DNA from: Eledone cirrhosa
Lineage: Eukaryota
Direction of reading: 5' to 3'
Length of the DNA stretch: 64,000 nucleotides
Assembly (NCBI GenBank): GCA_964016885.1
Contig: OZ024741.1
Span: 219,852,001 to 219,916,000, forward strand
Position numbers and translations under genes: made by a program. Positions 2,719-45,239 of the stretch are shown here, in pieces. The notes under the pieces are model-generated. The model made no database searches. It saw only the letters and a list, made by a program, of their open reading frames with translations, and had not been told where the DNA came from. Each line of letters starts with the position of its first letter. Position 1 is the first letter of the stretch.

Positions 2719-5700
2719 TGACCTGGCCGATAGATTTCGACTAGATTTTCCGACGGTGCCAACCTGGTCTTGGTCAAATCGCAGCGGATCATCTAGGTCG
2801 TACCTAGATAGGTTTTTAGTTAGAAATAAGGACAGGGACTTTTTAAGTTGTCCAGTAATGCTCATGGTTGGCTATTCAGACCACAAGTTGGTGACCTGCA
2901 GGGTCAACCTTGATAGAACGCATAGACAGGGCCCCGGTTACTGGAAGCTGAACTTGTCCTTACCGGCTAGTAAAGCTTACAGGGACCGGATTAGTACGTT
3001 AGTTAAGGAGCGGTTGACTGGAGCGATCGTCAACAGCAGGTGGTGGGTATCTCTAAAGAGAGAGATTAGATTAGTCTCGATATAATTTAGTAAGGTTCTA
3101 GCTGCGGATAGGAATAGGAAGGAAAGGGAGCTGATAGATAGAGTAGAAGAGGCAATTAGAAGCGGCGACGTGGCCAGAGTGCTAGCGTCGAGAACAGCTT
3201 TGAGCCAGTTTTTCGACGCGAAGCACGAAGGCTGCGTTGTCCGAAGTAAAATACGTGCTCTAGGGAACGAGGGGACCAAATCTGTTAGCTGGGCCCGCGT
3301 GACAGAAGCCAAGAGTGGAACTAAATCCACCATCCGGTTTTTGCGAGACCAGGATGGACGGGCGATTCTTGAGCCTAAGCAGACGTGTGAGGCCTTTCAA
3401 AAGCACTTTGCCCGATTGTTCGGAAGGAGCGGGGAGCCGGTTGGGGATGTAGACTTCGGTCCATATCTCGACGGCCTGCCGCGTCTCTCGGACAGGGAGG
3501 CGAAGTCCTGCGAGGAGCCGATTTCAGCCGCTGAGATAGAGGACGTGCTGAGCCAATGCGGCAAACGCAAATCCCCGGGTCTCGATGGTCTTCCATACGA
3601 ACTATATCTAGCTATGCCGGACTTGTTCCCCGATCTCCTCGAGGCGGTCTACTGCAACTGGCGACAGAACGGGAGAATTCCCTGTGCTGTGACCAAGGGC
3701 GTAGTCACGCTAGTGAGGAAGGACGAGAACAAGGGGGACGAAATAAGTAACTTCAGGCCCATAACTCTGCTAAATACAGAGTTTCAGACTTTGGCCAAGG
3801 TGCTAGCAAAGAGGTTGGCGCTTGTCGTGGGCAACCTGGTGGGAGATGCGCAGATATGCTATCCCGTCCAGATCCATCCATGACAACCTCCACCTCATGC
3901 GATACATCATAGAGAGGGTTGGGAACGAACCCGGCTTTGGTGGGGCTCTGATCAACTTGGATCAATCTAAGGCGTTCGATAGGGTCGACCATGGTTACCT
4001 GGATGCGGTGCTAGCGGCGGCAGGCTTCGGACCCGTTTTCAGGGGCTGGATCACTGCTGTGCACAGCAGCCGCATCTGCTCTAGAGTCAAGGTGAACGGC
4101 TACCTCTCGGAGCCGTTCGAAATCGCGCGGTCCATCCGACAAGGGTGCCCTCTCTCCTCCCTTCTGTATGTATTGACTCTCGAGCCACTACAGCGGAAGT
4201 TGGAGTTGTTGCAGGGCATCCCTTTGGAACCGGGATTGCGGAAAGCGGTGTCGGCCTACGCCGATGACGTGACAGTAATGGTGTCGACGTCCTCCGAAAT
4301 CGGGGCGATCGGCACCTTACTGGAGGAGTACGAAAGGTTCACAGGGGCTAAGCTGAACTGGGACAAGTCGATCGGTTTGCAACTCGGCACATGGAGGGGC
4401 AAACCAATGCCCTCCGATGGCGTCGTCGGACGCTGGACGGAGGGCCCGGTGAAGTTGCTCGGGGTCTGGTTCGGACCAGACCTCCAGGTGGAGAAGAACT
4501 GGGCGGATGTTACGAACAGGGTGTTTGCACTGACCCAGAAGTGGGCCAGTTGCAAACTATCCCTGAAAGGTCGGGCTGAGGTGGCGAACACCTATATAGC
4601 GTCCGTCATCTACTACCGCCTGACCGTCGTGCCTTGCCCAAGGGAGACCCTCGCCAAGATGGAGCGCGCGCTCTTCCAATTCCTTTGGAAGAGGCGGGCT
4701 CCTATGGTGAGGAGATCCATCTGCTGTCAACACCCTTCGAAAGGAGGGCTGGGGATGCCGTGGATATTGATGCGTAAACACGCATTAAGGCTACGGCACC
4801 TCCACGTATTCCTCACCGGTCAACCGGTGTGGGCCTCGTTTGTGAGACGAACATTTCCCAGACTCGTCTCACTCACCGAGCTGCAATCCTGGGTCAAGCA
4901 AAGACCGAGAAAACTGGGCGCCTGGCACACCGAGTGTGCCCAGGCGCTCACCGTCCTCTGGCAGGCAGATCCGGTTATCAGTGGAGACTCCACCGCAACA
5001 TTCTATAGAGGGCTGGTACGCAGCAGGTGCGACGACGCCCTCGGAGGAGCCCTAGATATGGAGGAAGACGAACTAGCCAGCCTCTTCGGTAGGACATTCA
5101 GCCCGGGACCTATGGACAACTTCCAGAAGTCCCTGGCCTGGCAGTGCTACCGAGGCGCTCTACCCGTTCGAGAAAAGCTCTACAGACACGGGCTCCCGGG
5201 TAGGGACCCCGCCAAAAAGATCTGTCCCAGATGCGTGTGCGACGGGGAAACCGTTGCACACGCATTGGTACACTGCTCGGGCGTAGCCGATGTGGGGCTA
5301 TGTCGAACAACTGCTGTCAAGGGTGGGACCGATCCGGTTGACCACCGAGTCTATTGTAACGATCAAGCCGCCTCCCCCCTTCAAAAATGAAGGATAGGCG
5401 GTGTTTCTGTGCGTAATAGCCATGGTGAAAGAGGTTGTATGGTGGACGCGTCTGAAAGGACTGAGGTCAGACACCTTTCTCTCTGGCCAACAACTGGTCC
5501 GTTTCTTCCGATATCATTTCGGAAGAAGGATCAGGATGGAGAGAGAGGTGCTCCACCCCAGTCGTTTTTATGAAAGGTGGGTGAAAGTGGCTAGAATGGT
5601 CCGTGTGAATGGGCCTTCTCTTTACATAAGCCTGTAGGTGGAGAAGAGGAAGGAACGAGGGAGCACCCTCTCTCTGTGCTCCTGAGGAGAAGGGGTTGTA

Positions 5701-5886
5701 CACTTTTTTCGGGGGTGTGTGTGACACCCCCCACCCCAAACGCCCCCTCCCTATTGAGGACTTATTGTTAAGTTTATTGTTAATTTTATATTTGTTATAT
5801 ATTTTCTTTACTCGCCTTTTCATGTAAACTCCCCCCATTGTACTTGTCCCACTGTTTGATGCCCTGGTGGCAAATAAAAAGAAACA

Positions 5887-5929
<43 letters not shown>

Positions 5930-5930
5930 A
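2715..5930 (+). mobile_element. Tx1 copy 3, 5'-truncated within the APE domain
   Basis: APE C-terminus (SYLDRFL, YSDHKL, GPGYWKLN), RT (KSPGLDGLP, FRPITLLN, DQSKAFDRV, QGCPLS, YADD), stop at 3083, frameshifts at ~3850 and ~5290; ORF2 end 5637; (TATC)n ~5887-5929. Confidence 0.92.
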
Positions 5931-6221
5931 TAATGGGCCTTCTCTCTATATCAGCCTGTAGGTTGAGGAAAAGGAGGAGGAGAGGAAAGGAGTACAAGCT
6001 CTTCGTACTCCTGGAGATAAGGGTTGCACATTTTTTTTCGGGGGTATGTGTTACCCATATAATCAGTCTCCCTCTATTGGGGAAAATCGACTAACTTTTT
6101 AAATGTGATAACATTTTACACGTTTTTATTGTATGTAAACTTCCCCCTTTGTATTTGTCCCCTTCTTTTGTGCCCCTGTGGCTAATAAAGAAATATATCT
6201 ATCTATCTATCTATCTATCTA
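5931..6221 (+). mobile_element. Tx1 copy 4, minimal 3'-end fragment (~260 bp + tail)
   Basis: Nearly identical to the 3' UTR of copy 6 (11916-12183); (TATC)n on both sides. Confidence 0.88.
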
Positions 6222-7185
6222 TAAACGATGGGCCCCTGGCACATTGAATGCGCTCAGGCGCTCACAGTCCTCTGGCAAGCGGGCGCAGCAATCAGTGGAG
6301 ACTCCACTTCGACATTCTATAGAGGGATTGTACGTTACAAGGGCGACGACGTGCTCGGAGAGACTCTGGGCGTCGAAGACGATGAGCTCACCAGTCTGTT
6401 TGGTAGGACTTTCCGCCCGGGACCTATGGACAACTTCCAGAGGTCCCTGGCCTGGCAGTGCTACCGAGGAGCTCTACCGGTTCGTGACAAGATCTACAGG
6501 CACGGGCGCCCTGGCAGGGATCCTTCCAAGAGGACGTGTCCAAGATGTGCGCAGGACATTGAAACAGTTCTGCACGCAATTGTACACTGCCCGAGCGTAA
6601 GCGACCTGTGGAACTATGCAGAACAACTGCTGTCGCGTATGGGACAAATCCAGTTGACTGCCGAGTCCATAGTAAGGATCAAACCGCCAGACTCTTTCAA
6701 AAACGAAAGAGAGGCGGTTTTCCTCTGTACGGTGGCTATGGTGAAAGAAGTTATATGGTGGACGAGGTTGAGAGGACTGAGTACAGATGCCTTTCTCTCC
6801 GGACAACAATTGATTCCCTTCTTTAAGTATCACTTTAGAAGGAGAGTCAGGGTGGAGAGAGAGGCACTGCACCCCAGTAAATTTACTGAAAGGTGGGTGA
6901 ATGAAGCGAAAATGGCCCGAGTGATTGGGCCTTCTCTGTTTATAAGCCTGTAGGTTGAGGAAGAGAGCAAAAGGAAGAAAGGAGCACTTGCACAACACGC
7001 TCCTCGAGTTGAGGGTTGTTCTATCGACGGGTATTAAACAACCCATGTGTGGCGCCTCCCCCCTATTGGGGATTTCGATTGTTGAAATTGTTTGTTTTTA
7101 GATTTTTACACGACTGTATGTAAAATCCCCGGCATGTCTTTGTATTGTCCCCTTTTCTTGTTGCGCCCTTGTGGCTAATAAAGAA

Positions 7186-7227
<42 letters not shown>
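6222..7227 (+). mobile_element. Tx1 copy 5, 5'-truncated (ORF2 C-terminal 241 aa + 3' UTR)
   Basis: ORF 6228-6953 with CPRC..H..C and terminal GPSLFISL; AATAAAG + (TATC)n ~7186-7227. Confidence 0.9.
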
Positions 7228-8470
7228 TTTTGGGAGTATTTCGGTACTCATGAAGGATCAATTGACGGCCCAAAATTACTCTGTGTCGCCAATTGTATCC
7301 AACCTGTACACCTTTTTCCCTACATACATGGGAAAAAGGACACAAAAGATCAGAATCACGAGTGTCACACCAAAGGTGAACATATGGTGGATACTGTTCG
7401 GCTTCATCAATTTTGATGAAGACAGAATACTGTCAGTAGGAAAGTCCCCCAGAGATGTATTCAATGGGACTAGCATTGAAGTTCTGGTGCAAATGAGCCC
7501 AGAGCGAATAGCTATGATCCCACAGCGTGTACTCCTGGACGGACTCACCTACATAAACCTTTCGGTTGAGGGTAGGCGGCCTTCATATTACCATTGCTTT
7601 AGCAGGGGTCACCTGAGGGCTTCCTGTCCTAAACTAATGAACCAAAAAAAGGCTCTTCTGCCAACACCCATCAAAACAACACAACCACCAACACCACCAC
7701 TACAACAACAACACCAACACACAAAAATAACCACAACAAACACAGTCCCACCCAACCTCACTCCACCTAAAACCACTGCAAAATCACATACAGACACAAA
7801 AGCTCCCCAAGACATACCCCTCCCCAATCACACAGACGATACAACAGATGAGGCTATCTCGCCATCACCCAGTGAAGACGAGGGAGAACCCCATCGCTCG
7901 AAAAGAAAGAAAAGACATCACAAAAGCAAAAAACCAGCAAACACTACCACAAACATACAACCACCAACACAAACAACAAAAATATCACAAACAAAACCCC
8001 CACCTCCTGAAAACAAAATACCTACAACAAAACGAAAGCACACACAAGAACTACAGACAAAAACAAACACAACACAAGAAAATTACACTTACACTTACAT
8101 AAACACTGAAAACAAAACACTAATGGAGACCATTACGAACGACCCTTCGGTTTTCACCGAAGGGAAAACTTTCGCCCACTCTATAAAAAATAGCAAAAAA
8201 ATGAACCTAAAACTGATTAGGGTCCCTATACAAACTTATAGGTCCCTAAAAGAAACATTTGAGAAGGATGTCGGGAATTCCTGCGTGAAACCACTCAACT
8301 GCGTCCTTCTCAAATGCCTCCCCACCCCAGACACCCCCATCCCACCATACCCCACCCCACCAAACATCTGCGTCCCCACCCCGCCGGAAACCACCACCCA
8401 TCCAGACAACCCCTCCAACACCCCCATGGAAATCGTGCGGCCTGGTCCCCAGGAGGCGAAGGGTGAGTGA
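7228..8470 (+). pseudogene. Tx1 ORF1 (gag-like nucleic-acid-binding protein), N-terminally truncated
   Basis: Degenerate zinc knuckle EGRRPSYYHCFSRGHLRASCP, then Thr/Pro/Gln-rich region; homologous to copy 7 ORF1; upstream 'YLSI' part of the ORF call is the microsatellite. Confidence 0.8.
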
Positions 8471-8503
8471 TCTCTTTTCCTCTTTTAACTTTTCAGCACC
8501 AAC

Positions 8504-11500
8504 ATGGCCAATATAAGAGTTGGATGTGTGAACGTACGCGGCCTGGGGATGCCCTGGAAACAGGGCAAACTCTTAAACGACCTCAGGTCGCACAGTTTGG
8601 ATGTGGTAGCCATTTGCGAGTCCAGGATCCACGGCGAGCGACAGCTGGCCCCCATCTTCGATGACTTTGAGATCTACGCATCTCTCTGTCAACCGGGGGG
8701 TGGGGGCGGAGTTGCCGTTTTGCTGCGGAAACACCTGGGCCTCGTAACACAGACGGTACATCTGGACCCGGAGGGTCGACTGGTGGTCCTAGACGTTGAC
8801 GGTAGTGAAGGTGGAGCGTTCAGGCTGGTGGCCGCATATGCCCCATCCGGGACACCGCGGCCAGACTTCTTCAAACGTCTAGAGACTTTTCTGGGAACGT
8901 CCCGCTCCTTGCTTTTAGTGGGGGACTGGAATGGAATCCTAGATGCACGTTGGGACTATGTGGGAGCATGTCCCGATAAAGGGGGGTGTAACAGCCTCAA
9001 ACAGTTAATCGACCGATTTGACCTGGCCGATAGATATCGACTAGATTTTCCGACTGCGCCACTGTGGACGTGGAGTAATCGTAGCGGAACATCTAGATCG
9101 TACCTAGATAGGGTTCTAGTTAGAAATAAGGATAGGGACATGTTAAGCTGTCCACAAATGTTCATGGTTGCCTATTCAGATCACAAACTAGTGACCTGCA
9201 TGGCCAACCTTGATAGAACCCATAGACAAGGACCAGGCTACTGGAAGCTGAACTTGTCGTTACCGACAAGCAAAGCCTACAGTAGACGGATTAGCACTTT
9301 AGTTAAACAGCACTTGACAGGGGCCATTGTCAACAACAGATGGTGGTACTCTCTCAAGAGGGCAGTTAGATTAGACTCGATAGTTTTTAGTAAAGAATTA
9401 GCGTTAGATAGAAATAGAACCGAGAAGGAACTGGTAGATAAAGTAGAAGAGGCAATTAGAAGTGGCAACGTAGCCAGCGTGCTAGCAACGAGAACGGCCT
9501 TGGACCAGTTCTTCGACGCAAAGCACGAGGGCTGCGTTGTCAGAAGCAAAATACGTGCTCTGGGAAACGAGGGAGCCAAAGCTGTTAGCTGGGCCCGAGT
9601 GACGGAGGCAAAAAGTGGCAACAAGTCCACGATTCGGTCTTTGAAGGACCAAAACGGACGCGTGATACGTGAGCCGAAGCAGATGTGTGCGGCTTTTCAG
9701 CGGCACTTTGCTCGGCTGTTCGGGGGGGGGGGGCGGCGCGCCGGGAGGGGCTATGGATTTCGGTCCATACCTCGACGGCCTACCGCGACTCTCGGACAGC
9801 GAGGCGAAGTTCTGCGAAAAGCCGATTTCAGCCACTGAGATAGGGGACGCGCTGAGCCAATGCGGCAAACGCAAATCTCCAGGTCTCGACGGTCTACCCT
9901 ACGAATTTTACGTAGCAATGCCGGACTTATTCTCCGGTCTCCTGGAAGCGGTCTACTGCAACTGGCAACAGAACGGGAGAATTCCCAGTTCTGTAACCGG
10001 GGGCGTGGTCACACTAATCAGGAAGGACGAGAATAAGGGGGATGACATAGGCAACTTCCGGCCCATAACTCTGCTAAACACAGAGTTACAGATTTTGGCC
10101 AAGGTGTTGGCAAAGAGGCTGGCGCTTGTCGTCGAGAACCTGGTGGGAGAAGCGCAGACATGCGCGATCCCGACCAGGTCCATACACGACAACCTCCACC
10201 TCATGCGATACATCATAGAGAGGGTAGGGTGTAAACCCGGCTTCGGTGGGGCCCTGATCAACTTGGATCAGTCTAAGGCTTTCGATAGGGTTGACCATCG
10301 TTACCTGGATGCGGTGCTCGAGGCGGCAGGCTTCGGACCCGTGTTCAGGGGCTGGATTGCTGCAATGCACAACAGCAACATCTGCTCAAGGGTCAAGGTG
10401 AACGGTTACCTCTCGGAGCCGTTCCATATTACGCGATCCATTCGACAGGGATGCCCTCTCTCCTCCCTTCTGTACGTACTGACTCTCGAGCCACTACTGC
10501 GGAAGCTGGAGCTATTGCAGGGCATCCCTCTGGAACCGGGACTGCGGAAAGCGGCGTCGGCCTACGCCGACGACGTGACAGTAATGGTGTCGAGCGCCTC
10601 GCAAATCGAGAAAGTCGGCACCTTACTAAAGGAATACGAAAGTCTCACAGGAGCGAAGCTGAACCGGGACAAGTCCATCGGTTTGCAACTCGGATCGTGG
10701 AGAGGCAGACCGATGCCTTCCGATGGCGTCGTCGGACGCTGGACGGAAGGACCGGTAAAGCTGCTCGGGGTCTGGTTTGGTCCGGACCTCCAGGTGGAGA
10801 AGAACTGGAACGAAGTGACGGCCAAGGTGTTTGCACTCACCCAGAAGTGGGCCGAGTGCAAACTATCCTTGAAAGGTCGAGCGGAGGTGGCGAACACTTT
10901 TATAGCGTCCGCCATCTACTACCGCTTGACCGTCGTGCCTTGTCCAGCCAAAACGCTCGCCAAAATGGAGCGCGCCCTCTTCCGATTCCTTTGGAAGAGG
11001 CGGGCTCCTTTGGTAAGAAGATCCATCTGCTGCCAACACCCTTCTAACGGAGGGCTGGGGATGCCGTGGTTGACGATGCGCAAACACGCGCTCAGGCTGC
11101 GGCATCTCTACGTATTCCTCACCGGACAACCGGTGTGGGCCCCGTTCGTGAGGCGAGCCTTCCCACGACTCGTCTCACTGACCGAGCTGCAGTCCTGGGT
11201 CAAGCAGAGACCGAGGAAAATGGGCGACTGGCACATCGAATGTGCTCAGGCGCTCACAGCCCTCTGGCAGGCGGACCCGGCGATCAGTGGAGACTCCACT
11301 TCGTCATTCTATAGAGGGTTGGTCCGCAGCAAGTGCGACGACGCGCTCGGTGAAACTCTAGGCGTGGAGGAAGATGAACTGGCCAGTCTGTTCGGTAGGA
11401 CCTTCCGCCCGGGACCGATGGACAACTTCCAAAAGTCCCTGGCCTGGCAGTGCTACCGAGGAGCTCTACCAGTTCGAGACAAGCTCTACAGACATGGGCG

Positions 11501-11945
11501 CCCGGGCAGGGACCCTGCAAAAAAGATCTGTCCGAGGTGCGTGCGAGACGGAGAAACCGTCGCGCACGCATTCATACACTGCCCGGGCGTCACTGACCTG
11601 TGGGGCTATGTAGAACGACTATTGTCGCGGGTGGGACCAATCCAGTTGACCACCGAGTCCATTGTCATGATCAAACCGCCACCCTCCTTCAAAAACGAAG
11701 GAGAGGCGGTTTTCCTTTGTGTGATAGCTATGGCGAAAGAGGTTGTATGGTAGACAAAGTTGAAAGGGCTGAGGTCAGACACCTTTCTCTCCGGCCAACA
11801 ACTGATTCTTTTTTTCAAATACCACTTTGGAAGAAGAATCAGGATGGAGAGAGAGGTGCTGTACCCCAGCAAGTTTCATGAAAGGTGGGTGAAAGTGGCG
11901 AGAATGGCCCGAGTGAATGGGCCTTCTCTCTATATCAGCCTGTAG
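8504..11945 (+). pseudogene. Tx1 ORF2 (APE endonuclease + reverse transcriptase + C-terminal Cys/His motif)
   Basis: NVRGL, GDWN, SDH APE motifs; YADD RT; frameshift in G-run 9722-9733; premature TAG 11751-11753 where paralogues have TGG. Confidence 0.92.
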
Positions 11946-12184
11946 GTTGAGGAAAAGGAGGAGGAGAGGAAAGGAGTACAAGCTCTTCGTACTCCTGGAG
12001 ATGAGGGTTGCACATTTTTTTCGGGGGTCTGTGTTACCCATATAAACTGTCTCCCTCTATTGGGGAAAATCGACTAACTTTTAAATTCCATCTGTGATAA
12101 CATTTTACACGTTTTTATTGTATGTAAACTTCCCCCTTTGTATTTGTCCCCTTCTTTTGTGCCCCTGTGGCTAATAAAGAAATA

Positions 12185-12241
<57 letters not shown>

Positions 12242-12242
<1 letters not shown>

Positions 12243-15200
12243 CGGGTTGAACACACGTGTGAAACTTGCTGGTTAAGTTCTGCTTAAATTTCTATAGAAA
12301 TTCTTGATTGAGAGCCTTCATATTTATACCAATTTGTAGAGGGACTGCCACGTCAAATTTTTATCTGGTCAATCTCTCAAAATATTCTTCGCCTTTAGGC
12401 GAAATAGTTTATGAAAAACATTTTTTAAAAAATGGCTGAAGCAACAGCTTCTTCACCAACATTCGAAGGAGGCAAAGGGAAGATATGCTTACAGCTTCCC
12501 CTTCCACTGTCATAGTAGCCGATGTCTCAGTCAAGGTCAAAAAGAGGAAGGATTTTCTTCACCTGCTGACCGACAATTTGACGTTGCCATGGCAACAAAC
12601 CAAAACCAAAAATGTGAACCAATGAACAAAAAAAAAACAACACAACCGGTACCACCAGCAATAACAATGTTATGGTCGAAAACAACAACAACAACAACGA
12701 AGACAACAGCAATAACAAGAACAACAAAAACAACAAATCCAGAAAAAACGAAAACAACCACACACAAAAAAAAACAACAACAAAAACGTTGGTAGAAAGC
12801 CTTGCAAAAGAGACAGAGTTTATAGAAATAGATCTGTCAAACCAAGCGCAGCACCTAAAGGACGCTGCGCAACATATAACTTTCGAAGGTAACGGCTTTC
12901 GAATAAGTACCCCGCCGCGACCTTAAGAAAAACAATTTCTTCCGGACGATCTGCTCATAAACCAAGAAACCTATGGCTTTAAGCGGTGGAAACCGCACTA
13001 AAGGAGGCAATGCCAGACATTGCTTACCTCCAGAAGGCCAAGCAGTATGGGAGCACCTCGGTGCTCTTTAAAAGCGAGGCCCTCGCCCAGAAATATTCGG
13101 TGGCTCCAATTAGAACGAGCCAACACATCTTCTTCTCAACATACATGGGAAGAAGAACCCATAAAATAAGGATCCCCCAGATCCCACCGAACACCAACAT
13201 TTGGTGGATCCTGGGTGGTTTTTTGGAGGAGGGTGAAGACAACCTCCTCTCTGTAAAAACATCAATCCGATAGAACTGGAACGGGACCTCAATGGAGCTC
13301 GTGGTTCAAATGAAACCGGAGAGGATTGGAAAAATAGCGGAAAGGGTGCCGGTGGATGATAACCATGTTGTCCACATCGCAGTGGAGGGCAAAAGACCAC
13401 AATGTTTCAAATGTGGAAAAAACACACATTTAAAAGCATTTTGCCCAATGCTGGATGTGGAAAAACAAAAGAAGGCGTTGTTGCCAACCCCAAAACTACA
13501 ACAGACACACCCGAAAACAAAAAAAACACAACCCCCAAACCATCAATATTCACCCAACCATCACAAACCACAAAATACACCACACGAAAAATGCCCCTGA
13601 AGGACTCTGCCCCACCCTTTCCCCCTCTGTCCAACACTCCCACAAACACACATACAAACACTCCAACACCACACATCATACCCCTCCCACCTACCTACAA
13701 TGATAACACCTCAGACACGGGAACCTCTACATCTCCAAGTGAGGATGAAGATGAACCCCAAAAATCCAAGAAGCAAAAAAGACATGCACACACCCAACAC
13801 TGACATAAACATACCGCCACAAACGACAACCACACCAACAACACAACCAGACACTTCACCAACAAAACAAACACCCACACCACTACAATCACAAAGCCCA
13901 ACCACAAAAAGAAAACTACAAACAGAAACAGTACACATAAAAAAAAAACACATTACACATACATAAAAACAAGAAACAAAGAACTGGTGGAAACTGTACA
14001 ATACAAACGGAAAGCAGAATACAAACGGAATGGAAAACCTTCCCCACCAACGACCAACCCCCAAACCTCAAACTTATCAAGGTAACAACCCTACAGTACG
14101 AAACTTTAAAAGGGAACTTCCCACATGATGTGGGCCCCCCTTGCCAAAAGACCCTTAACCGTGTCCTGAAAAAAGGATTCCCTCCCTCCCCAAACACCAC
14201 CAATTTGGACATGGAGATCGAACAACCCGACCTCCAGGAAACGAAAAGGTAAGTGTTCCTGCCTTTTCTGTCCTTAACTCTTCTTTACCAACATGGTGAC
14301 TATACAAGTTGAATGTTTGAATGTACGTGGCCTGGGCATGCCCTGGAAACAGGGCCAGCTTTTAAATGATCTCAGGTTACATTGTATAGATGTGATAGCC
14401 ATCACCGAGTCCAGGATTCACGACAAGCAGCAGCTAACCCCCTTATTCAATGATTTTGAGATCTACGTATCTTTCTGTCAGCCAGGAGGTGGAGAGGGAG
14501 TTGCTGTTCTTTTTCGAAAAAAAATGGATCTCAAAGTACAGATGATTCACTTTGACCCGGAGAGAAGCCTGGTGGTCCTGGAGGTGAATGGTAGTGAAGG
14601 TGGAGCTTTCAGACTTGTAGCCGTATATGCCCCGACTGGAACATCGCGACCAGAGTTCTTCAAGCGTCTAGAGCCATTCCTGGGAACGTCTCGCTCCTTA
14701 GTGTTAGCGGGGGACTGGAATGGCATATTAGACGTACGTTGGGACTATGTAAGAGCTTTTAATAATAGAGGGGGGTGTTGTAGCCTCAAAAATCTCATCA
14801 GCCAATCCCAACTGGCTGATAGATATCGACTAGACTTCCCAAGTGCACCACTGTGGACATGGAGCAACCGCACTGGGTCTTCTAGATCGTATTTAGATAG
14901 ATTTTTAATTAGACAGAATGATAAGGAAGCATTAAGCTGTCCACAAATGCACATGGTTGCCTATTCAGACCACAAATTAGTCACCTGCATAGTCAACCTT
15001 GATAGAATACATAGACAGGGACCCGGATACTGGAAGCTAAACATGTCGCTCCCGGCGCGTAAGGCCTACAGTAAACGGATTAGTACCGTAGTTAAGTGCC
15101 AGCTGACGGGGCGATCGTCAACAACAGGTGGTTCTATCAGGTGGTTCTAACAGGTGGTTCTTTAGAAAAAAACAAAACTGAAAAGGAACTGGTAGCGAAA

Positions 15201-17821
15201 GTAGAAGAGGCACTTAGGAATGGCAGTACAGCTGACGTGCTAGCAGCGGGAACGGCACTAGACCAGTTCTTCAACGTGAAACACAAAGGTTGTATTGTCA
15301 GAAGTAGAACACGTGCTCTAAGAAACGAGGGAGCCAAAGCTGTTAGCTGGGCCCGAGTGGCAGAGGCGAAAAGTGGCAACAAAACCACAATTCGGTCTTT
15401 GCAAGACAAAGATGGACGCATTCTACTTGAATCCAAGCAGATGTGCACGGCCTTCCAGCGACATTTTGCACAACTGTTCGGGCAAAGCGGTATGTCTCTC
15501 GAGCACGGATGCAGAGAGCTGCGAAAGGCCGATCACAGCCGCTGCGGGAAACGCAAATCACCCGGTTTAGATGGTCTACCCTATGAGTTTTACATAGGCA
15601 TGCCAGACTTGTTCCCTGGCGTCTTCGAAGCGGTCTACTGCAACTGGCAGCAGAACGGGAGGATTCCCAATTCTGTAGGCTGAAGCGTAGTAACGCTGAT
15701 CAGGAAAGATGAGAACAAAGGGGATGAGATAAGCAATTTCAGGCCCATAACTCTGCTTAACACAGAGTTAAAGATTTTGGCCAAGGTGTTAGCAACGAGG
15801 CTGGCGCTTATCGGCGAGAACCTGGTAGGGGAAGCGCAAACGTGTGCAATCCCGACCAGGTCCATACACGAAAACCTCCACCTCATGCGATACATAATAG
15901 AGAGGGTAGGATGGAAACCTGTTTTCGGTGGGGCTCTGATCAATTTAGATCAGTCTAAGGCATTTGATAGGGTCGACCATCAATACTTGGAAGCGGTTCT
16001 CAAGGCGGCCGGCTTCGTTCCCGTCTTCAGAGGCTGGATCGCTGCCATGCACACCAGCAACTGCTCGGCAGTCAAGGTGAATGGTTATCTATCGGAGCCA
16101 TTCCAAATCATGCGTTCCATCCGTCGGGGATGCCCTCTCTCCTCCATTCTGTATGTACTGACACTCGAGCCATTACTGCGGAAGTTGGAGCTGTTGCAGG
16201 ACATCTCGATCGAACCAGGACTGCGGAAAGCAGCCTCGGCCTATGCCGACAAATGGTGTCGAAAACCTCGGAAATCGGGGTAATCAGCAGGAATACGAAG
16301 CGTTGACAGGAGCAAGACTAAACCCAAACAAGTCTGTCGGTTTGCAACTTGGCACATGGAGAGGCAAACCCATGCCTTCCGACAGTGTCGTTGGACGCTG
16401 GACGGAAGAACTGGTGAAATTGCTCGGGATCTGGTTTGGTCCAGACCTCCAGGTGGACAAGAACTGGAACGAGTCACGACGAAGGTGTTTGCACTCACCC
16501 AGAAGTGGGCTGAGTGCAAACTCTCATTGAAAGGTCGAGCGGAGGTGGTGAACACTTACATAGCGTCCGTCATCTACTACCGCTTGACAGTCGTGCCTTG
16601 TCCCCGGGAATACCTCACCAAAATGGAACGCCTACTCTTCAAGTTCCTCTAGAAGAAACAGGCTCCATTGGTGAGGAGATCCATCTGCTGTCATCACCCT
16701 TCTAATGGAGGGCTGGGCATTCCGTGGCTAATGATGCGCAAACAAGTGCTGAGGCTATGCCATCTCTAGGTATTCCTGACCGGTGAACCGGTGTGGCTGT
16801 CCTTTGTGAGACAAGCTCTTCCACAACTCGTCTCACTAACAGAGCTGCAGTCCTGGGTAAAGCGAAGACCGAATATGGGTGCCTTCAGGCACTCACAGTC
16901 CTCTACCAAGCGGAAACGGCAATCAGCGGAGACTCTACTTCGACATTCTATAGGGGATTAATGGAGGATAAGTGCGGCGCCATTCTCAGGGAAACTCTAG
17001 GCATCGAGGAGGATGAACTGACCAGTCTGTTCGGGAGGACTTTCCATCCAGGGCCTATGTATAACTTCCAGAGGTCTCTGGCCTGGCAGTGCTACCGAGA
17101 AGCTCTACCAGTTCGAGACAAAATCTACAGGCACGGACATCCTGCCAAAAGGACCTGTATAAGATGCGAGCAGGACATCGAAACCGTTCTGCACACAATT
17201 GTTCAGTACCTAGGGGTGACCGACGTGTGGAATTATGTTGAACAGCTACTGTCACGTGTGGGACGCATCCAGATGTCAGCCGAGTCCATCGTGAGGATCA
17301 ACCCGCCACCTTCATTTAAGAATGGAGAGGCGGTTTTCCTCTATCTGGTGGCTATGGCGAAAGAGGTAATATGGTGGACGAGGTTAAAAGGACTGAAGGC
17401 AAACACCTTTCTCTCCGGACAACAACTTATCCCCTTCTTTAAGTACCACTAGTCGAGGGAGAAGTGCTACACCCCAGTAAATTCGCTGAAAGGTGGGTGA
17501 ATGTGATGAAAATGGCCCGAGTGAATAGGATTCTCTGTATATAAACCTGTAGGTTGAGGAAGATAAACAGAGGTAAGACGGGAACACCTACAAAACGTGT
17601 TCTTGGTGTTGAGGGTTGATCTGTCCACGGGATGTAAAACAACCCTGCAGTAACGTTCCCTCCTATTGGGGATTTCAATTGTTATTTTATTATATATAGT
17701 TTATTGTTATTTATTAATGTTAAAGTTATATGATGTTTATGTAAAACCACTGCCGTCACGTCTTGTAATGTCCCATTTTTGTACGCCCCTGTGTCAAATA
17801 AAGAAAGATATCTATCTATCT
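12242..17821 (+). mobile_element. Tx1 copy 7, apparently full-length but decayed (5' UTR, ORF1 ~12432-14252, ORF2 14293-17551)
   Basis: ORF1 CCHC knuckle CFKCGKNTHLKAFC; ORF2 MVTIQVECLNVRGL...; many stops/frameshifts; ends AATAAAGAAAG(ATCT)n. Confidence 0.9.
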
Positions 17822-19130
17822 TCTGTTTGGTCATCAGAAGTGTCAGCATACAACAAATACATTGCCCATAATACTTATGCTGTGCCAATTCTAACGCCAA
17901 CATTTGGCCTGCTGAACTGGTCATTGCAAGAACTAAGTGAGATGGATGTTAGAAGTCGAAAACTTCTCAGTGTTACTGGGAACTTTAACATCAATGGTGA
18001 TGTGGATAGGCTATACTTCTCCCGCAAGGAAGGTGGCCGGAGTATAAAATCCATATTAACATCATATGAGACCCTGATAATAACACTGAAGCAACATCTT
18101 CAACAGAGGAAAAAGGTTGGCAACCATCTTGCCCAGGTTTATGAGCATGAAGAAAAAAATATCATTAGAATAGCGACTGATCTGGAGGAGAGATATGGAA
18201 TAAAGCCTGATATAAATCTCTCACCCAGAGAAATCGGAAGATCCTATTCAATGTTCAAACAAGATAAAAAAATTGACCAATTTACAGAAAAAGTTGTGCA
18301 TGGATACTTGAGGCGTAAAACACAGACGATAGAGGGGATAAACCACTCAAAAATCCTGGCATGGAGTTCCGACAAGTTTATGACATCACACCTTGAGGGA
18401 TATCTCTATGCAATACAGGAACAAGAACTCCCTACCAAATATCTGCTGCACAAAAGAGGAGGGACAGCAGCTGACAATAAATGTAGGCTATGTAAAACAA
18501 AGATCGAGGATGTAAGCCACATTGTTGCCAGCTGCGAAAGAATGTCATCTCGCTACTACCTCCCATGAGACACGATGGGATAGCTAGAACCATCTGGAAC
18601 GCACTTCGGAAAACAAAATTAACAACAAACGAGGGGGAATATATTGAGACAGATGGCACTAAGGAATACTGGTGGAACCTGAAAATAAAAACTGCCACCA
18701 AATTAAAGCACAACCGGCCTGATATTGTTGTTTGGGACCACACATTGAAAACGTGTTCTGTTGTGGAGATCAGCTGCCCACTTGATGTAAACGTTGTTAG
18801 AAAAATACAGGAGAAGGAGGACATCTCCGGACCATTTATGGGGAGTTTACAAATCCAGTATCCAAGATACACCTTTAGCTTCATACCCATCATTATTGGA
18901 GCTACGGGTTATATACCAACCCGGTTAGACCAAAGTATGACTGAACTTCGATTTGCGGACAAAAAGCGCAGCTCCCTAATTCATAGTCTACAAATAGCTG
19001 CGATAGCTGGCACCTTCAAAATTTGCAAAACATTCTTGCGATTCAAGGGATGACAATTTCTTTTCTTTTACAACCTTGCCACCAGGAAGGTGACCGGTCA
19101 AAAAATTATACTCGAAATTAAGAGAAAGAG
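17822..19130 (+). mobile_element. R4/Dong-clade RLE non-LTR retrotransposon, 5'-truncated
   Basis: RLYFSRKEGGR, CRLC..EDVSHIVASC zinc knuckle, RHD, RPDIVVWD..VVEISCP restriction-like endonuclease; followed by (CATA)n 19131-19188. Confidence 0.88.
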
Positions 19131-19159
19131 ATACATACATACATACATACATACATTCA

Positions 19160-19192
<33 letters not shown>

Positions 19193-19466
19193 GATGGCTG
19201 CTCCCTCGTTATCGAGTATGGCCATTGCACGATATAATATTATTAATAATTATCAAATAAGCTATCGTGCAATGCCTGTGCGTGAAGATTTCTTTATAAG
19301 TAAGGAAAAACTGTGCACTGAGCGACAGTAGCTATAACCCGAAAAGAAGAAAAGATCAAAATCATCGGTAACTACTGAGCCGCAGGTTTTATGTCGGAGT
19401 CATCCTAGTTTCCTGAGTTGCCTTCTCCTAGAAGAATGCCCTGACAAAGGCTAGGGGTCCTTCAAG
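19131..19466 (-). mobile_element. Non-autonomous RTE derivative (partial 5' UTR fused to 3' end), (TATG)n tail
   Basis: Matches 19490-19532 and 23609-23826 of the full-length RTE, joined across the inverted repeat CATTGCACGATA/TATCGTGCAATG. Confidence 0.8.
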
Positions 19467-19467
19467 C

Positions 19468-19555
19468 ATACATACATACATACATACATACATGATGGCT
19501 GCCCCCTCGTTATCGAGTATGGCCATTGCACAATAAAAAAAAAAAAAAAAAAAAA

Positions 19556-19615
<60 letters not shown>

Positions 19616-19633
19616 AATAAAAAAAAAAAAAAA

Positions 19634-19664
<31 letters not shown>

Positions 19665-19790
19665 AAAAAAAAAGGGAAAAGATATATATATATATACACA
19701 CATATATATACACACACACATACATACATATATACACACACACATACATACACATACACTCACACATATATACACACATACATTAATAAC

Positions 19791-19833
<43 letters not shown>

Positions 19834-19912
19834 GCAATAATAATAATAACGACAACAACAATAATAATATACATATTCATATATATATACACACACACGC
19901 ACGCACATAAGC

Positions 19913-19950
<38 letters not shown>

Positions 19951-22900
19951 GATAGCAACTAACAGTGCTGCGATCGAATGTGGCTTTTTAGCCCAGCCAA
20001 TGATCTAAAATGTCTTGCACAGAGTCGGCAACCAAAACATTTACTGGGAATAGTCGGCTGTGGTTGGAGTTCGTGTACTTTTGCATGTCGCTTGAGTCCT
20101 CCTGCTGATTTACATTCTCTACCACATGTTTGGCAAGCATGATGAGTAGCATCTCCAACAGCAGCCTGGTAGTCAACCACTGGTCTTACTCTATGACTGC
20201 GAAGATGACTTTCGAGTCCAGCTTTGCTTAGGCAGAGTCTCGCACAGACGCTGCATGTCAGAAACATAGGAGGACCCTCGCCGTCTGGAAGTGCAACAGC
20301 AATACCCTTCCTCACGTCCCGCTTTACTTTCTCGTGTGCGATTCGAGATGCCTCAAAGGCAACTTTTCCCTCATATACAGTCTTTCTCCATTTATTACGA
20401 TCAGCAGCAATATTTTCCCATGTATCAGCAGAGATGTTAGCGTCTCTCAGAGAGGCCTTCAAGGAATCCTTATACCTCTTTTTTGGTTTATGTGGCGGTC
20501 GTTTTCCTTTAACCAACTCTCCATAGAAGAGTTGTTTTGGTATTCTAGAATCCTTCATCCTGGCAAGGTGACCACTCCAACGGAGTCGCTGCTTAAGCAC
20601 AAGAGCTTCTATACTGTCACACATAGAGCTTTCCAAAATCTCGACATCACTGATGTGGTCCCTCCAGCGAACGCCATGTATCCGTCTGAGACACATCTGA
20701 TGGAAACGCTCCAATTGCTTAAGGTGGCGTCGATATGTGACCCAGGTCTCGCAGGCATAAAGAAGACAAGAGAGTACACATGCCCTGTACACCTTTACCT
20801 TTGTCCTCCTGCATATGTCTCGCCGACCCCAGAGTCGCCTTTCTAGCTTTCCGAAAGCATCACTTGCTTTCCTAATCCTAAGTGAGATTTCACTGTCAAG
20901 GTTGCCGTATCGATCGACAGTGCTTCCCAGGTAGACAAACTGATCAACCACTCCAAGTCGTTTGCCATACACATAGATGTTTGGTTCAGTGTACTGCCTA
21001 CCAGGTGCAGGTTGGTACATGACGACGGTTTTCTTGAGACTGACAGTCAAACCCAGGGCAGTGCAAGCGTCAGAAAATACATTCAAAATGTGCTGCATAT
21101 CACTCTCTGTGTGCGCTACAAGATCGCAATCATCTGCATACAAGAGGTCTCTTATGACCGATATAAATACTTTTGTCTTCGCAGCAAAGCGCCTGATGTT
21201 AAATATGCTGCCTGAGGTTCGATATCGGATGTAAACACCATGCTCGCAATTCCTGAATGCAATACAGAAAACCATTGCAAAGTATATGGCAAACAGGGTC
21301 GGTGCTGGAATATCCCCCTGTTTCACTCCATTTTTTACTGAGACAGGCTCCGACATGTTACCTCCGACATTAACCCAAGCCTTCATGTCGTCATGGAAAG
21401 ACCTAACTAAAGCAAGGAACTTATCAGGGCAACCAAGTTTCTGGAGAACCTTCCATAATGCATCTCTGTTGACAGTATCGAAAGCCTTTGTCAGATCGAC
21501 AAAAACCTGATACAGATCCAAGCCCTGTTCAATGCACTTCTCCTGGAGCTGTCTAGCTGAGAAGATCATATCAGTAGTGCCGCGTCCAACACGAAAACCA
21601 GATTGACTTTCAGGAAGGACACAATCTGCAATGTGTGTCAGCAGACGGTCCAGAAGCACCCTACATAAAACTTTCCCCACGACAGAAAGCAATGATATAC
21701 CTCTGTAGTTCCCACAATCATTCCTGTTACCCTTTCCCTTGTACAAGACCACCATTACTGCATCTCTCCAGTCCTCAGGCACGGATTCATTAGCCCATAT
21801 CCCTCCAAACAGAGAGTGAAGATGTTGCAGGAGTCTCTCACCACCATATTGTAGGAGCTCAGCATGTATGCCATCCATACCTGGAGATCTTCCACTGTTC
21901 AGCTTCGAAATAGCCACTGCAACCTCCACAAGTGTCGGAGGTTCTGCGAGAGCTACTTTCACAGGACTTTCCGGAATGAGATTGAGGAAATCCTCACTGA
22001 CGACAGACGGCTGATTCAAAAGATCATCAAAGTGCTCTCGCCACCTTCGTAGAATTCCCTGTGAGTCACGAAGAAGTTCTTTGCCATCCCTGCTGCGAAT
22101 CGGTGTCACCAGAGAAGAAGACGGTCCATAAACCTCACGCAAGAGACTGTACAACAGCTTTGTGTTATTGCAATCAGACGCAGTTTGTATCTCACCAGCC
22201 TTCTCACTCCACCACTGATCCTTCATCTGAGAAAGACTCCGCCTAACACGTGATTTTACATCCCTGAGCTCCTCATGCAACGTATTCCTCTCCTGTGGTT
22301 TTGCCGTCAAGTAGCGTGACAGAGCACGCCTCTTATCAGCCAACAAGTCTTCTATATGTACATCATTCTCATTAAACCAGTCCTGATGTTTTCTCTGCAC
22401 CAATCCCAGAACACGTCTGCCTACATCATAAACCGACTTTTTAAGGGTCGGCCAATCCTCACCAAGATCTGCAGCCTGCATCTCTTCTTCCAATGTCCTC
22501 TTCACATTTTTATCCTTAAGACGAGCAGCATTCAATCTTTTGGGCAGGGTAACACCAGGAGCCCGGATTTTACGTTTGGTGATTAGATTCACTTTTGCGC
22601 GTACCAGGCGGTGGTCCGTCCAGCACTCAGCTCCACGAAGAACACGAACACACTGCACATCCTGTCTGTCACGCATCCTGACTAGGACGTAGTCCAAAAG
22701 ATGCCATTCCTTAGATGCAGGATGCATCCATGTGGTCTTGAATTTGTTCTTTTGTTGGAACATGGTGTTGGTAACACACAGATCCAGCTCCTCACACATC
22801 TGCAGCAAGAGCATACCATTGCTGTTACACTTTCCCATCCCATGCCTTCCGATTACATTCCATGTGTTAAAATCCCTACCCACTCTAGCATTAAAGTCAC

Positions 22901-23548
22901 CAAGCACGATGACTTTGTCTGCCTGAGGGATATTTCTTAAAACACCTTTCAAGGCATGGTAAAAGGACAGTTTTTCTTCATCGACAGAATTCATAGTTGG
23001 AGCATACACACTCACCAGGGTAGCATATCTTCCCCTGTCCAGCGGAACTCTCATGGACATAAGACGCTCACTAATCCCCACTGGGAATTCTTCTAATTTA
23101 TTCACCAGTACAGTCTTAACAGCAAATCCTACCCCAGCCTCTCTTCTGGTTCCTTCATCTCTTCCTTTCCAGAAGAATGTATATTCTCCACAAAATTCCG
23201 TAAGATGACCATCTCCAGCTAACCTCGTCTCAGACAAAGCCACGATGTCAAGATCGTAACGTCGAAGCTCCTTCGCAACAAGAGCGGTCCTTCGTTCAGG
23301 ACGCTCCAAAGAATCCCTGTCAAGCAGCGTCCGTACGTTCCAGCAGCCAAGACTAAATGCCCTGTTTGGCTCTATTACAATGGCACGATGACGGGCGGGC
23401 CCAGGTTGTGATAACTTGGGGCCCCTGCCCTTATTGCCAATGATCCCTTTTGTTCCAGAACCCAAATTGGCAATTATCTCGTTTACATTGTTCTGGAACA
23501 TCATTGAATTGGGAAAAAAAAAAAAAAAAAAAAAAAAAAGTAATAATA

Positions 23549-23583
<35 letters not shown>

Positions 23584-23886
23584 ACACTATTAATAATTAT
23601 TAATGCACTCGTGCAATGCCTGTGCGTGACGAATATTTTTAAAGTGAGGAAAGACTGTGCACTGAACCAATCCCACTCTCTGAGCGACAGTAGCTATAAC
23701 CCGAAAAGAAGAAAAGATCAACATCATCGGTAACTACTGAGCCGCAGGTTTTATATCGGAGTTAACCCAGTTTCCTGAGATGCCTTCTCCTAGAAGAATA
23801 CCCTGACATGGGCTAGGGGTTCTTCACTCCCAGTGGTTTAACTGCGCGATCGGGCATCCAGCCCGATTATTTCTATGTCCCCGCGC
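19468..23886 (-). mobile_element. Full-length RTE-clade LINE with microsatellite-expanded UTRs and (TATG)n tail
   Basis: 5' UTR ~23886-23609 with RTE-like CTAGGAGAAGG motif; single ORF; 3' terminus ...CTCGATAACGAGGGGGCAGCCATCATG(TATG)n; ends defined by homology to the short copies. Confidence 0.82.
19959..23504 (-). CDS. RTE LINE protein: APE endonuclease + reverse transcriptase + three C-terminal C2H2 zinc fingers (1181 aa, uninterrupted)
   Basis: WNVRTL, SETRL, GDFNARVG, TDHRL; YRGISLLS, DLTKAFD, GVKQGD, LYADD, LRWSGH; CSVC..HLRSH, CQTC..HAKVH, CRLC..HIRSQH. True start Met uncertain. Confidence 0.93.
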   Translation of the reverse strand: MMFQNNVNEIIANLGSGTKGIIGNKGRGPKLSQPGPARHRAIVIEPNRAFSLGCWNVRTLLDRDSLERPERRTALVAKELRRYDLDIVALSETRLAGDGHLTEFCGEYTFFWKGRDEGTRREAGVGFAVKTVLVNKLEEFPVGISERLMSMRVPLDRGRYATLVSVYAPTMNSVDEEKLSFYHALKGVLRNIPQADKVIVLGDFNARVGRDFNTWNVIGRHGMGKCNSNGMLLLQMCEELDLCVTNTMFQQKNKFKTTWMHPASKEWHLLDYVLVRMRDRQDVQCVRVLRGAECWTDHRLVRAKVNLITKRKIRAPGVTLPKRLNAARLKDKNVKRTLEEEMQAADLGEDWPTLKKSVYDVGRRVLGLVQRKHQDWFNENDVHIEDLLADKRRALSRYLTAKPQERNTLHEELRDVKSRVRRSLSQMKDQWWSEKAGEIQTASDCNNTKLLYSLLREVYGPSSSLVTPIRSRDGKELLRDSQGILRRWREHFDDLLNQPSVVSEDFLNLIPESPVKVALAEPPTLVEVAVAISKLNSGRSPGMDGIHAELLQYGGERLLQHLHSLFGGIWANESVPEDWRDAVMVVLYKGKGNRNDCGNYRGISLLSVVGKVLCRVLLDRLLTHIADCVLPESQSGFRVGRGTTDMIFSARQLQEKCIEQGLDLYQVFVDLTKAFDTVNRDALWKVLQKLGCPDKFLALVRSFHDDMKAWVNVGGNMSEPVSVKNGVKQGDIPAPTLFAIYFAMVFCIAFRNCEHGVYIRYRTSGSIFNIRRFAAKTKVFISVIRDLLYADDCDLVAHTESDMQHILNVFSDACTALGLTVSLKKTVVMYQPAPGRQYTEPNIYVYGKRLGVVDQFVYLGSTVDRYGNLDSEISLRIRKASDAFGKLERRLWGRRDICRRTKVKVYRACVLSCLLYACETWVTYRRHLKQLERFHQMCLRRIHGVRWRDHISDVEILESSMCDSIEALVLKQRLRWSGHLARMKDSRIPKQLFYGELVKGKRPPHKPKKRYKDSLKASLRDANISADTWENIAADRNKWRKTVYEGKVAFEASRIAHEKVKRDVRKGIAVALPDGEGPPMFLTCSVCARLCLSKAGLESHLRSHRVRPVVDYQAAVGDATHHACQTCGRECKSAGGLKRHAKVHELQPQPTIPSKCFGCRLCARHFRSLAGLKSHIRSQHC

Positions 23887-24351
23887 AAAAAAAAAAAAAA
23901 AAAAAAAAAAAAATTACTTATTGACACTTATACGTACGACATACACACACACGCATACATATGCGTGCACACAGCAACACTCACACACACAACAAACACA
24001 CACACACGCTACTCTACTCACTTACACGCACACACACACATATATATATATATATTACCGTCATTACTGATACAAGATTACCAGATTATGTCAACTGTTG
24101 ACTTTCAAGAGTTTGTATAGTTGAAGCCGATCGTATTACAGTCCAGTATTACTATAATTGCTTTACAGCATAGAGTTATGGCTCTCCACGGAGTCAACAA
24201 AAGAGAGTACCAGTGATGCGCTGGGCCAGTCGCTGGATCCGTGCCAAAAGCAGAAAAATTATTATTAAAGTTGTTCTTAAGGTCGCTGGTGATGGTGATG
24301 GCGACGGCGGTGGCGGTGGTGGTGGTGGTGGCAGTTGATGTTGTTGTTCTG

Positions 24352-24396
<45 letters not shown>

Positions 24397-25126
24397 GTTA
24401 TTTTGAGTTTTTTTTTTTTTTTTTTTCCTTTCTTTTTTTCCTCCTTAATTTTTTTTTTTTTTTTTCCCCTTCCCTTTTCTTTTTTCTTTTCCCTTCCTTT
24501 TTTTATGTTTTGATGCCGCTGTTGTTGTTGTTGTTGTAATTGTTGTAAATGTTCATTTCAGTTCATTCTGAAGCTGTTGTTGCTGTAAACATTAGTGCCG
24601 GTGTTGTTGTTGTTGTAGATGTTGGGGTTGAAATCTGGTTGTTTGACTGAGTGATGTATATACACACATATACATACACACACATATATATATATACATT
24701 CATCAGAGAGTAGAGAGTTTGACAACAGGTCGATGACTTTAGTCTCGATAGGGTATGGTATGGTAATGACATGTGATGGTGGGGAGAGAGTGTAGACGTT
24801 ATTGTGGTGGTGTGGACAGTGAGATGTATCTAGTTCATTTGACCGTTTTCTTCTCTTAGCAAAATTTGAATTCTAGCCATGTTATATTGAGATGTAAGTA
24901 AATGTAAAATATAAATAAGGATTGCTCTGCTAAAATATACTAAAATATTTGTGTAACTTCCACAAACTTCTGTCGTGACATTCCCGAGTCCAGTAACCAA
25001 CAAATTGTTGTATTTTGATGTTTCAGAATACAAAAATTAATTAAAAACTTACCCCACGAAGATACATACATACATACATACATACATACATACACAAAAC
25101 ACCACCATACATACATACATACATAC

Positions 25127-28180: not shown

Positions 28181-28670
28181 CATACATACATGATGGCTAC
28201 AACTCTGTTTCGAGAAATACCATCGCTTGCAATGCCAGGTATAGCAAAAAAATGTCACATACCAAGCGATGCCTGTGCTTGAAGCTTTTTTGAGCGATGA
28301 AAGGTTTTTCACGAGTCCAATCCCTCTTTCTGAACATCGAATGCATTTACCCAAAAAGTAGAACTGGTCTACATCATTGGATGCAAACGAAGTCGCAGGT
28401 TTTATATCAGAGTGACCTTCTCTCAGAGAGATGTCTTAATGAAGACTAGGAGTCTCTCGCTCCACAAAACAATACTCTATTGGATGACCGTTGAATTTCT
28501 TGAGTTCCTCCGCCCTTTGACGGGTTTCATTTTTCATCCCGTAGGGTGTTCAAAATGACCCTCCTCACCAAGCAAGCTTGGTGGGGTTGCCGGTTTAGTC
28601 ACCGACAACCCAACCATGTACAGGTTGACTGGGTTACATGTTACTAGTAGCGCTGAAGAGCGACCTGTCA
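28181..28670 (-). mobile_element. Second-family non-autonomous RTE derivative
   Basis: Same layout as 19131-19466 (CATACATGATGGCT..., ...ATGCCTGTGC..., CGCAGGTTTTATATC, CCTTCTC) with a diverged inverted repeat CATCGCTTG/CAAGCGATG. Confidence 0.65.
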
Positions 28671-45198: not shown

Positions 45199-45239
45199 AT
45201 ATACATACATATGTACATGTACATACATACATACATTTT

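Follow-up and report, generated by a model that had tools for sequence, protein, structure and literature searches.

Complementary arms in the 5' and the 3' untranslated region of RTE-clade LINEs of Eledone cirrhosa and of their bipartite derivatives

The F1 element and its short copies

The stretch of Eledone cirrhosa DNA analysed here (hereafter the window; 64,000 nucleotides, contig OZ024741.1 of assembly GCA_964016885.1, positions 219,852,001 to 219,916,000) hosts on its minus strand a young, near full-length autonomous long interspersed element (LINE) of the RTE clade, about 5.6 kb long, denominated F1. Short tracts of its untranslated regions (5' and 3' UTRs), called arms, are complementary to each other, and are predicted to form a long-range helix. 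F1 and the related elements are described in Table 1. The earlier note on this DNA, made from the sequence alone, had closed the element at 23886, missing about 1.2 kb of 5' UTR. The far 5' end (about 25061) is common to six other distinct copies, and the 5' arm sits 1.4 kb inside it. All the motifs quoted in the note were found where it placed them; the stem of the copy bearing the open reading frame (ORF) lies at the site indicated, but consists of 10 pairs, one of them G-U, instead of 8. The stem has 12 pairs in short copies.

Table 1. Features of F1 and of related elements in the window
Feature	Position	Strand	Remarks
F1 autonomous LINE	19495-25061	-	near full-length, RTE clade
5' UTR extension, family-specific, microsatellite-rich	23887-25061	-	common to other copies; lacks the ~180-nt head of short copies
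Conserved 5' UTR module	23605-23886	-	homologous to 5' UTR region of AviRTE, RTE-4_AMi, RTE-3_AMi (supplement sequences, by eye)
Predicted 5' hairpin, AGTGG pairing with CACT anchor, then A-rich linker	23638-23680	-	hairpin predicted in most families
5' arm of long-range helix	23609-23618	-	predicted pairing
Single intact ORF, ~1,181 aa from first ATG	19959-23504	-	APE endonuclease, reverse transcriptase, C-terminal C2H2 fingers
3' UTR interior, microsatellites and poly-T, ends at 3' arm	19534-19958	-	length differs between copies
3' arm of long-range helix	19524-19533	-	predicted pairing
Predicted 3'-terminal stem-loop with internal loop	19501-19524	-	adjoins 3' arm
(ATGT)n tail / microsatellite target	19470-19493	-	
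5'-truncated non-autonomous bipartite F1 copy	19195-19464	-	arms 19263-19274 / 19223-19234, 28-nt AT-rich loop
Non-autonomous bipartite F1 copy	44757-45199	-	arms 44918-44929 / 44788-44799
Fragment of unrelated SINE-like repeat	44806-44905	+	inserted in loop after integration, antisense to F1 copy
Copy of second bipartite family F2	28190-28669	-	arms 28263-28271 / 28221-28229, loop shortened relative to typical copies

The ORF is one open frame matching Pfam PF03372 (1e-11) in its N-terminal part and PF00078 (2e-30); the domain search gave no match to RNase H. No separate ORF1 was found, as the upstream minus strand contains no ORFs of at least 100 aa save two microsatellite-rich frames (104 and 150 aa). 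A single ORF encoding APE endonuclease and reverse transcriptase, a short tandem-repeat tail and a conserved internal 5' UTR region are shared with RTE LINEs such as AviRTE, RTE-3_AMi, RTE-14_Lch and BovB. In the available parts of the published supplements, the motif order of the F1 5' UTR region, compared by eye, is that of AviRTE, RTE-4_AMi, RTE-3_AMi and RTE-14_Lch. The reverse transcriptase tree of F1 relatives contains only relatives without clade names, and the solved protein structures nearest to the F1 protein are those of L1 ORF2 and R2, none having been solved from RTE. An AT/GT-type repeat follows the 3' end in 30 of the 31 copies in which this is intact, and 5' truncations occur at varied points. 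The window gave no Rfam match, and the 52 weak matches found on 14 loci include no ribozyme family, Rfam models being narrow. A fold like that of the hepatitis delta virus ribozyme could not be fitted by eye to the head of about 180 nt of short copies.

A search of the 3.0-Gb genome with part of the F1 ORF yielded 2,068 candidates; the 40 scored are all nearly identical, and identity is at least 99.5% in the 30 measured. The 3' module is present in 26 of the 30 top copies, the remaining four being broken where the 3' UTR has its (ATT)n run. On the 5' side, examined in 20 copies, the 5' module is whole in 13, of which one carries an inversion; another copy is cut just before the arm, and six are 5'-truncated. 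Full-length copies hence carry both modules, a point on which the earlier note had made its reading depend. Exact matches to the 3' module number 6,555 in the genome, and its reversed control has none. By position, 30 of these modules were sampled, and their classes corrected by eye: 12 belong to short bipartite copies, 17 to autonomous-type 3' UTRs, and one to a truncated short copy; none of the 30 carries a foreign head. As the note had reported, the two modules recur in the window, the 5' module with 95% identity at 44920-45199 and with 83% at 19265-19464, the 3' module at 44749-44799 and 19184-19234.

Some peculiarities of F1 copies have been recorded. The young autonomous subfamily features the 1.2-kb microsatellite-rich leader in place of the head of about 180 nt of short families, possibly a promoter swap, and lacks the conserved arm-to-ORF region found in families F4-F6, described below, and in RTEs from metagenomes. 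LINE-like sequences are inserted antisense in (ATT)n runs of F1 UTRs (L012, L016, L026, L052, L072), which suggests another LINE targeting (TAA)n. (ATGT)n runs, including each other's tails, take insertions of F1, F2 and F3, and head-to-tail clusters result (19131-19493; L023, L054, L058, L063, L119, L120). In the young copy L031 (G000:C1:212191726-212193626) the 5' part is inverted, in a twin-priming-like arrangement.

Further families and deletions between the arms

The same arm complementarity, in one register between the 5' hairpin and the 3'-terminal hairpin, was found in five further families of the genome, each having its own stem sequence. F2 and F3 are short elements, whose loops retain a remnant of the ORF end; F4 includes decayed full-length copies and many deletion derivatives; F5 and F6 are two old families. 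In the comparison of the modules, the second family aligns at 69% over 151 nt. The earlier note had seen in it a stem of 9 bp preserved by compensatory changes. This stem is not formed by the folding program in the window copy, which is atypical and further deleted; typical F2 copies have a loop of about 88 nt and a stem of 11-13 pairs.

Pairing per stem column is 91-100% in F3 over 11 positions (42 copies), 89-100% in F1 (27 rows, including a row that spans two copies) and 82-100% in F2 (11 copies). Double changes at stem positions 3, 6, 7 and 8 set the three families apart from each other, and G-U pairs are kept. Within F1, short copies have T-A as the outer stem pair, three full copies of intermediate age have G-C, and one older full copy is mismatched there; the change counts as one event and is modest evidence for pairing. 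An inverted repeat of 8 bp would by itself be due to chance. Its recurrence in the same register, with changed letters, across families is not, and complementarity is conserved where the earlier note had admitted that it might fail.

Short F1 copies, F2, F3 and the F4 derivatives all consist of part of the 5' UTR and of the 3' end, lack an intact ORF and are multi-copy, as bipartite non-autonomous RTE elements do. Elements and short interspersed elements (SINEs) derived in the same way from 5' and 3' UTR parts appear in the available parts of PMC5786205, PMC4844689 and PMC7245038, which describe the bipartite form and the conserved 5' region, with no pairing between the two.

Deletions were analysed in F4 by means of a motif located about 90 nt upstream of the 5' arm, which has 216 matches, 30 copies being taken by position. 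Of these, 23 are bipartite, four run on into the ORF, and three end at the arm or short of it, no 3' end following within 1.5 kb. About 12 distinct junctions, some of which may derive from one another, were defined in the bipartite copies by their BLAST edges. All the junctions fall between the arms, beginning 5-100 nt past the 5' arm and ending 25-145 nt before the 3' arm. The pattern is compatible with selection for the arms as well as with template jumps at the base of the loop, and lends circumstantial support to the account given by the earlier note of how bipartite elements arise. Clustering of breakpoints within about 110 nt of the 5' arm and 145 nt of the 3' arm, in an interior of 3.5 kb, is what would be predicted if the stem were a by-product with no role in mobilisation, both arms being kept only through reverse transcriptase jumps across the base of the hairpin. 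This alternative leaves unexplained the same-register complementarity, with different letters, of autonomous elements at about 50% protein identity, and is held to be very improbable.

The loop tolerates ORF remnants and microsatellite arrays, which have been co-amplified with the element. The SINE fragment that the earlier note had placed in the loop of one window copy is present, though its limits and orientation had to be revised (Table 1). Carriage of natural cargo, which the note had thought the loop might allow, finds no support in this genome, and the reading of the SINE as cargo was rejected. The SINE junction of the window copy is unique, and 202 exact junctions mark the same site of short-F1 loops as a hotspot. 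Of 30 insertions sampled, the 26 that were resolved show 22 lengths, and their target duplications differ; they therefore represent independent, later insertions into the AT-rich loop. The repeat involved is abundant, SINE-like, and inserts antisense at TAAT-like sites (44806-44905; L039, L425-L454); no tRNA was detected in it by ARAGORN at the four loci tested.

Complementarity in distant RTE elements

A metagenome scan gave 80 loci, of which 14 were used, those with an ORF match over its full length and with part of both ends present. Complementarity was found also in these full-length RTEs (42-51% protein identity), the closest protein relatives (63-67% identity) lying outside the arm comparison. 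The tests were then anchored by motifs independent of the pairing, a CACT-containing motif at the 5' side and the terminal hairpin at the 3' side. The former occurs exactly once in 12 of 18 5' regions. In the anchored duplex test, carried out on 12 families with a rule that chose the wrong hairpin for F3, the cognate mean was -19.7 kcal/mol, versus -11.9 +/- 4.1 for non-cognate pairs. None of 1,000,000 permutations was as good, and the effect vanished at seven 5' windows shifted by 40-160 nt; the p-values of this and of the three tests that follow overstate the evidence, since the windows were set after the stems had been seen by eye in the same elements. The uninterrupted helix averages 8.9 pairs in cognate versus 4.5 in non-cognate combinations, and without close relatives only 3 of 200,000 permutations still matched it.

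With a fixed register, having relaxed the box rule and represented F5 and F6 by their two best copies, at least 7 of 8 pairs form in 11 of 14 cognate and in 15 of 182 non-cognate combinations; positions 3-8 feature 2 to 5 pair types per column. In a two-strand ensemble in which local competition is allowed, at least 5 arm-arm pairs form in 10 of 13 cognate combinations, compared with 5 of 156 non-cognate ones, four of these five involving close relatives. The folds feature a recurring hairpin just before the 5' arm and a terminal stem-loop just after the 3' arm. The rule was fixed before the 3' ends of F5 and F6 were seen. Of 20 copies fetched, 8 have a recognisable 3' end, and all 8 pair in the predicted register; these old copies support pairing only modestly.

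Complementarity and duplex tests fit equally well pairing in cis and in trans, and the arms might thus join two RNAs, or later the cDNA with RNA or target, aiding the 5' junction or second-strand synthesis. Such a function appears very unlikely, because in short copies the arms, separated by 11-160 nt, fold into a hairpin, and the 5' arm is found far inside the 5' end, by 1.4 kb in F1. Moreover, 5'-truncated insertions without the arm are common, so that its cDNA copy is not needed to complete insertion.

The search in other RTE sequences which the earlier note had proposed was extended to published ones, read by eye and without computed controls in the available parts of the PMC5786205 supplement and in matches from that of PMC4844689; the comparison leaves aside the HaSE and SINE2-1_PXu/PPo entries. 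Platypus, marsupial and crocodilian sequences, and those of BovB type, display the complementarity. In the PMC5786205 supplement, platypus MonoRep87A/B feature the anchor, a perfect stem of at least 9 pairs with new letters and the terminal hairpin. Ten pairs join the 5' UTR and the 3' end of RTE-3_AMi (with WALLSI), and nine are found in both BovB and BovA2. Stems are shorter or interrupted in RTE1_LA and RTE-11_AMi/SINE2_Gav, as well as in GymnSINE (PMC4844689), and are weak in CoeSINE4/5 and SINE2-2_ACar. The MonoRep87 3' end, labelled unknown in the available part of PMC5786205, looks by eye like an arm followed by an RTE-type terminal hairpin. A tract at the 3' end of one metagenome RTE (L132:4534-4590) is nearly the same as this tail in the supplement sequences of MonoRep87A/B, and the likeness suggests that the tail is RTE-derived.

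No RTE relatives were found in viral contigs; three pattern matches without protein match were set aside. Contigs of prokaryote genomes yielded 10 loci, none with both ends usable; the RTE-like ORFs in bacterial-assembly contigs (L211-L220) are probably eukaryotic contamination. The contigs of three sequencing runs added nothing on the arms.

Other elements are found in the window. Positions 1-18500 are occupied by a tandem array of related LINE copies on the plus strand, with RT and zf-RVT domains. Several end in the same motif followed by (ATCT)n (near 1750, 2534, 5869, 6180, 7173 and 12169), and the array looks like microsatellite-targeted nesting. Relatives of it are found inverted at 56700-63800. 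A PIF1-like helicase fragment (40538-41494) possibly derives from a Helitron.

Proposed role of the helix

The predicted order of the RNA elements, according to folding, is 5' hairpin, A-rich linker, long-range helix, terminal hairpin, tail. According to the proposal, the helix predicted between the arms likely unites the 5' hairpin and the 3'-terminal hairpin in a single element recognised by the reverse transcriptase of F1 itself. A probability of about 0.6 is assigned to this reading. Recognition by the enzyme is suggested chiefly by the non-coding derivatives, which keep and lengthen the stem. Pairing of the arms would loop out the ORF, and the protein would bind the composite element made of 5' hairpin, helix and 3' hairpin, priming reverse transcription at the tail. 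An RNA missing either end would be a poor template, so that successful non-autonomous copies would keep both ends. With both ends near each other, template jumps that delete the interior would be favoured.

Several observations weigh against the proposal. In blind scans (520 x 130 nt windows) a permissive setting barely separated cognate from non-cognate combinations (p 0.010), with alignments that ran long, and a stricter one did so weakly (p 0.006), the best helix lying at the homologous place in 4 of 15 elements and overlapping it in a fifth; the stems are only 8-12 bp, hence the weak separation. Six of the 18 elements (L134, L136, L137, L153, L166, L178) were dropped from the anchored tests for lack of an anchor, L133 and L135 fail in the fixed register (3 of 8 pairs), and no helix was obtained in the ensemble test for L131, L133 and F2_L087. 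The F5 and F6 copies share about 85% identity among themselves, the anchor had to be relaxed for F6, and shuffling gave p < 0.05 in only 1 of 8 or, with uninterrupted-helix scoring, in 4 of 8. The youngest and most numerous F1 subfamily has the shortest F1 stem, of 10 pairs with a G-U, and the minimum-energy fold of the 4.4-kb window RNA pairs the 5' arm locally and forms no long-range helix. The 3' arm is shortened in 6 of the 23 F4 short copies, and retention in F4 cannot tell the need for the arm from that for promoter or anchor sequence upstream of it. In plants, Au-like SINEs reportedly have only the 3' end in common with RTE (PMC6007223, available part).

Short stems and weak blind scans are also what might be expected if the RTE ORF had been inserted into the loop of some unrelated SINE, or if the matches were fortuitous. 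The modules flank the ORF in many dispersed copies, no foreign head was met among the 30 sampled, the modules are homologous to UTRs of named RTEs, and a second autonomous family of the genome has its own arm pair; an artefact of this sort is largely refuted. The helix is, with high confidence, real and conserved.

A real helix might alternatively serve translation or RNA stability, as a closed loop, as a switch between translation and template, or as protection of ends devoid of poly(A). The stop codon of L135, F2 and F4 lies next to the 3' arm or overlaps with it, and in the window copy a local hairpin competes with the 5' arm, as would happen in a switch. Nevertheless, short non-coding families, present in thousands of copies and in no need of translation, keep the stem and lengthen it to 11-16 pairs, and published SINEs with tRNA or 5S heads keep it as well, as far as the available parts of the sources tell. 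Translation or stability is accordingly an unlikely main function, and recognition by the reverse transcriptase is preferred.

Complementary ends bring a 5' structure to the site where copying starts both in flavivirus genome cyclisation and in the retron a1/a2 inverted repeat. To these the RTE arms may be likened by analogy only, elements and sequences being unrelated. Local 3' hairpins of RTE and other LINEs have already been described (PMC5135761, PMC6007223, available parts). Those of stringent LINEs, such as UnaL2, ZfL2 and the plant RTE/Au-like SINE, share with F1 the conserved terminal hairpin, the internal loop and compensatory changes by the tail; their signals are local to the 3' end, whereas the second strand of the predicted helix adjoining that of F1 comes from the 5' UTR, at a distance of several kb. 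The literature searches brought up no account of pairing between RTE 5' and 3' UTRs; Gogolevsky 2008 (Bov-B SINEs), Ruminski 2011 and patents, known by citation only, could hold one. F1 is a known kind of element with a clade-wide cis-acting RNA feature that is likely unreported.

Few LINE groups give rise to bipartite derivatives, 'for unknown reasons' (Kojima 2018, PMC5786205, available part). Besides RTE, the clades Vingi, Ingi and R2 are reported to form bipartite elements. Arm pairing is a testable answer to the question of why RTE LINEs, unlike most clades, yield elements and SINEs which keep a piece of the 5' UTR together with the 3' end. In the trans 'Gene Writer' system based on RTE-1_MD, a payload flanked by the cognate 5' and 3' UTRs of an RTE undergoes insertion in human cells, and UTR changes raised the efficiency (PMC13708176). 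The available part of this review gives no structural reason, the terms 'pairing', 'base-pair' and 'secondary structure' occurring 0 times.

It is tentatively proposed, as a possibility rather than an expectation, that a circularised RNA serves as template for RTE-clade LINEs throughout the animals, including BovB, the signal being split over both UTRs and assembled by a family-specific helix. The helix would check that the RNA is full-length, set which SINEs can be mobilised, and free the region between the arms for deletion or payload. The split recognition element, if real, would revise the view of LINE templates as recognised at the 3' end alone. It bears also on RTE-based, RNA-only gene insertion, as it predicts which few dozen nucleotides matter and that UTRs of mixed families fail unless their arms are matched; the strength of the stem may tune efficiency.

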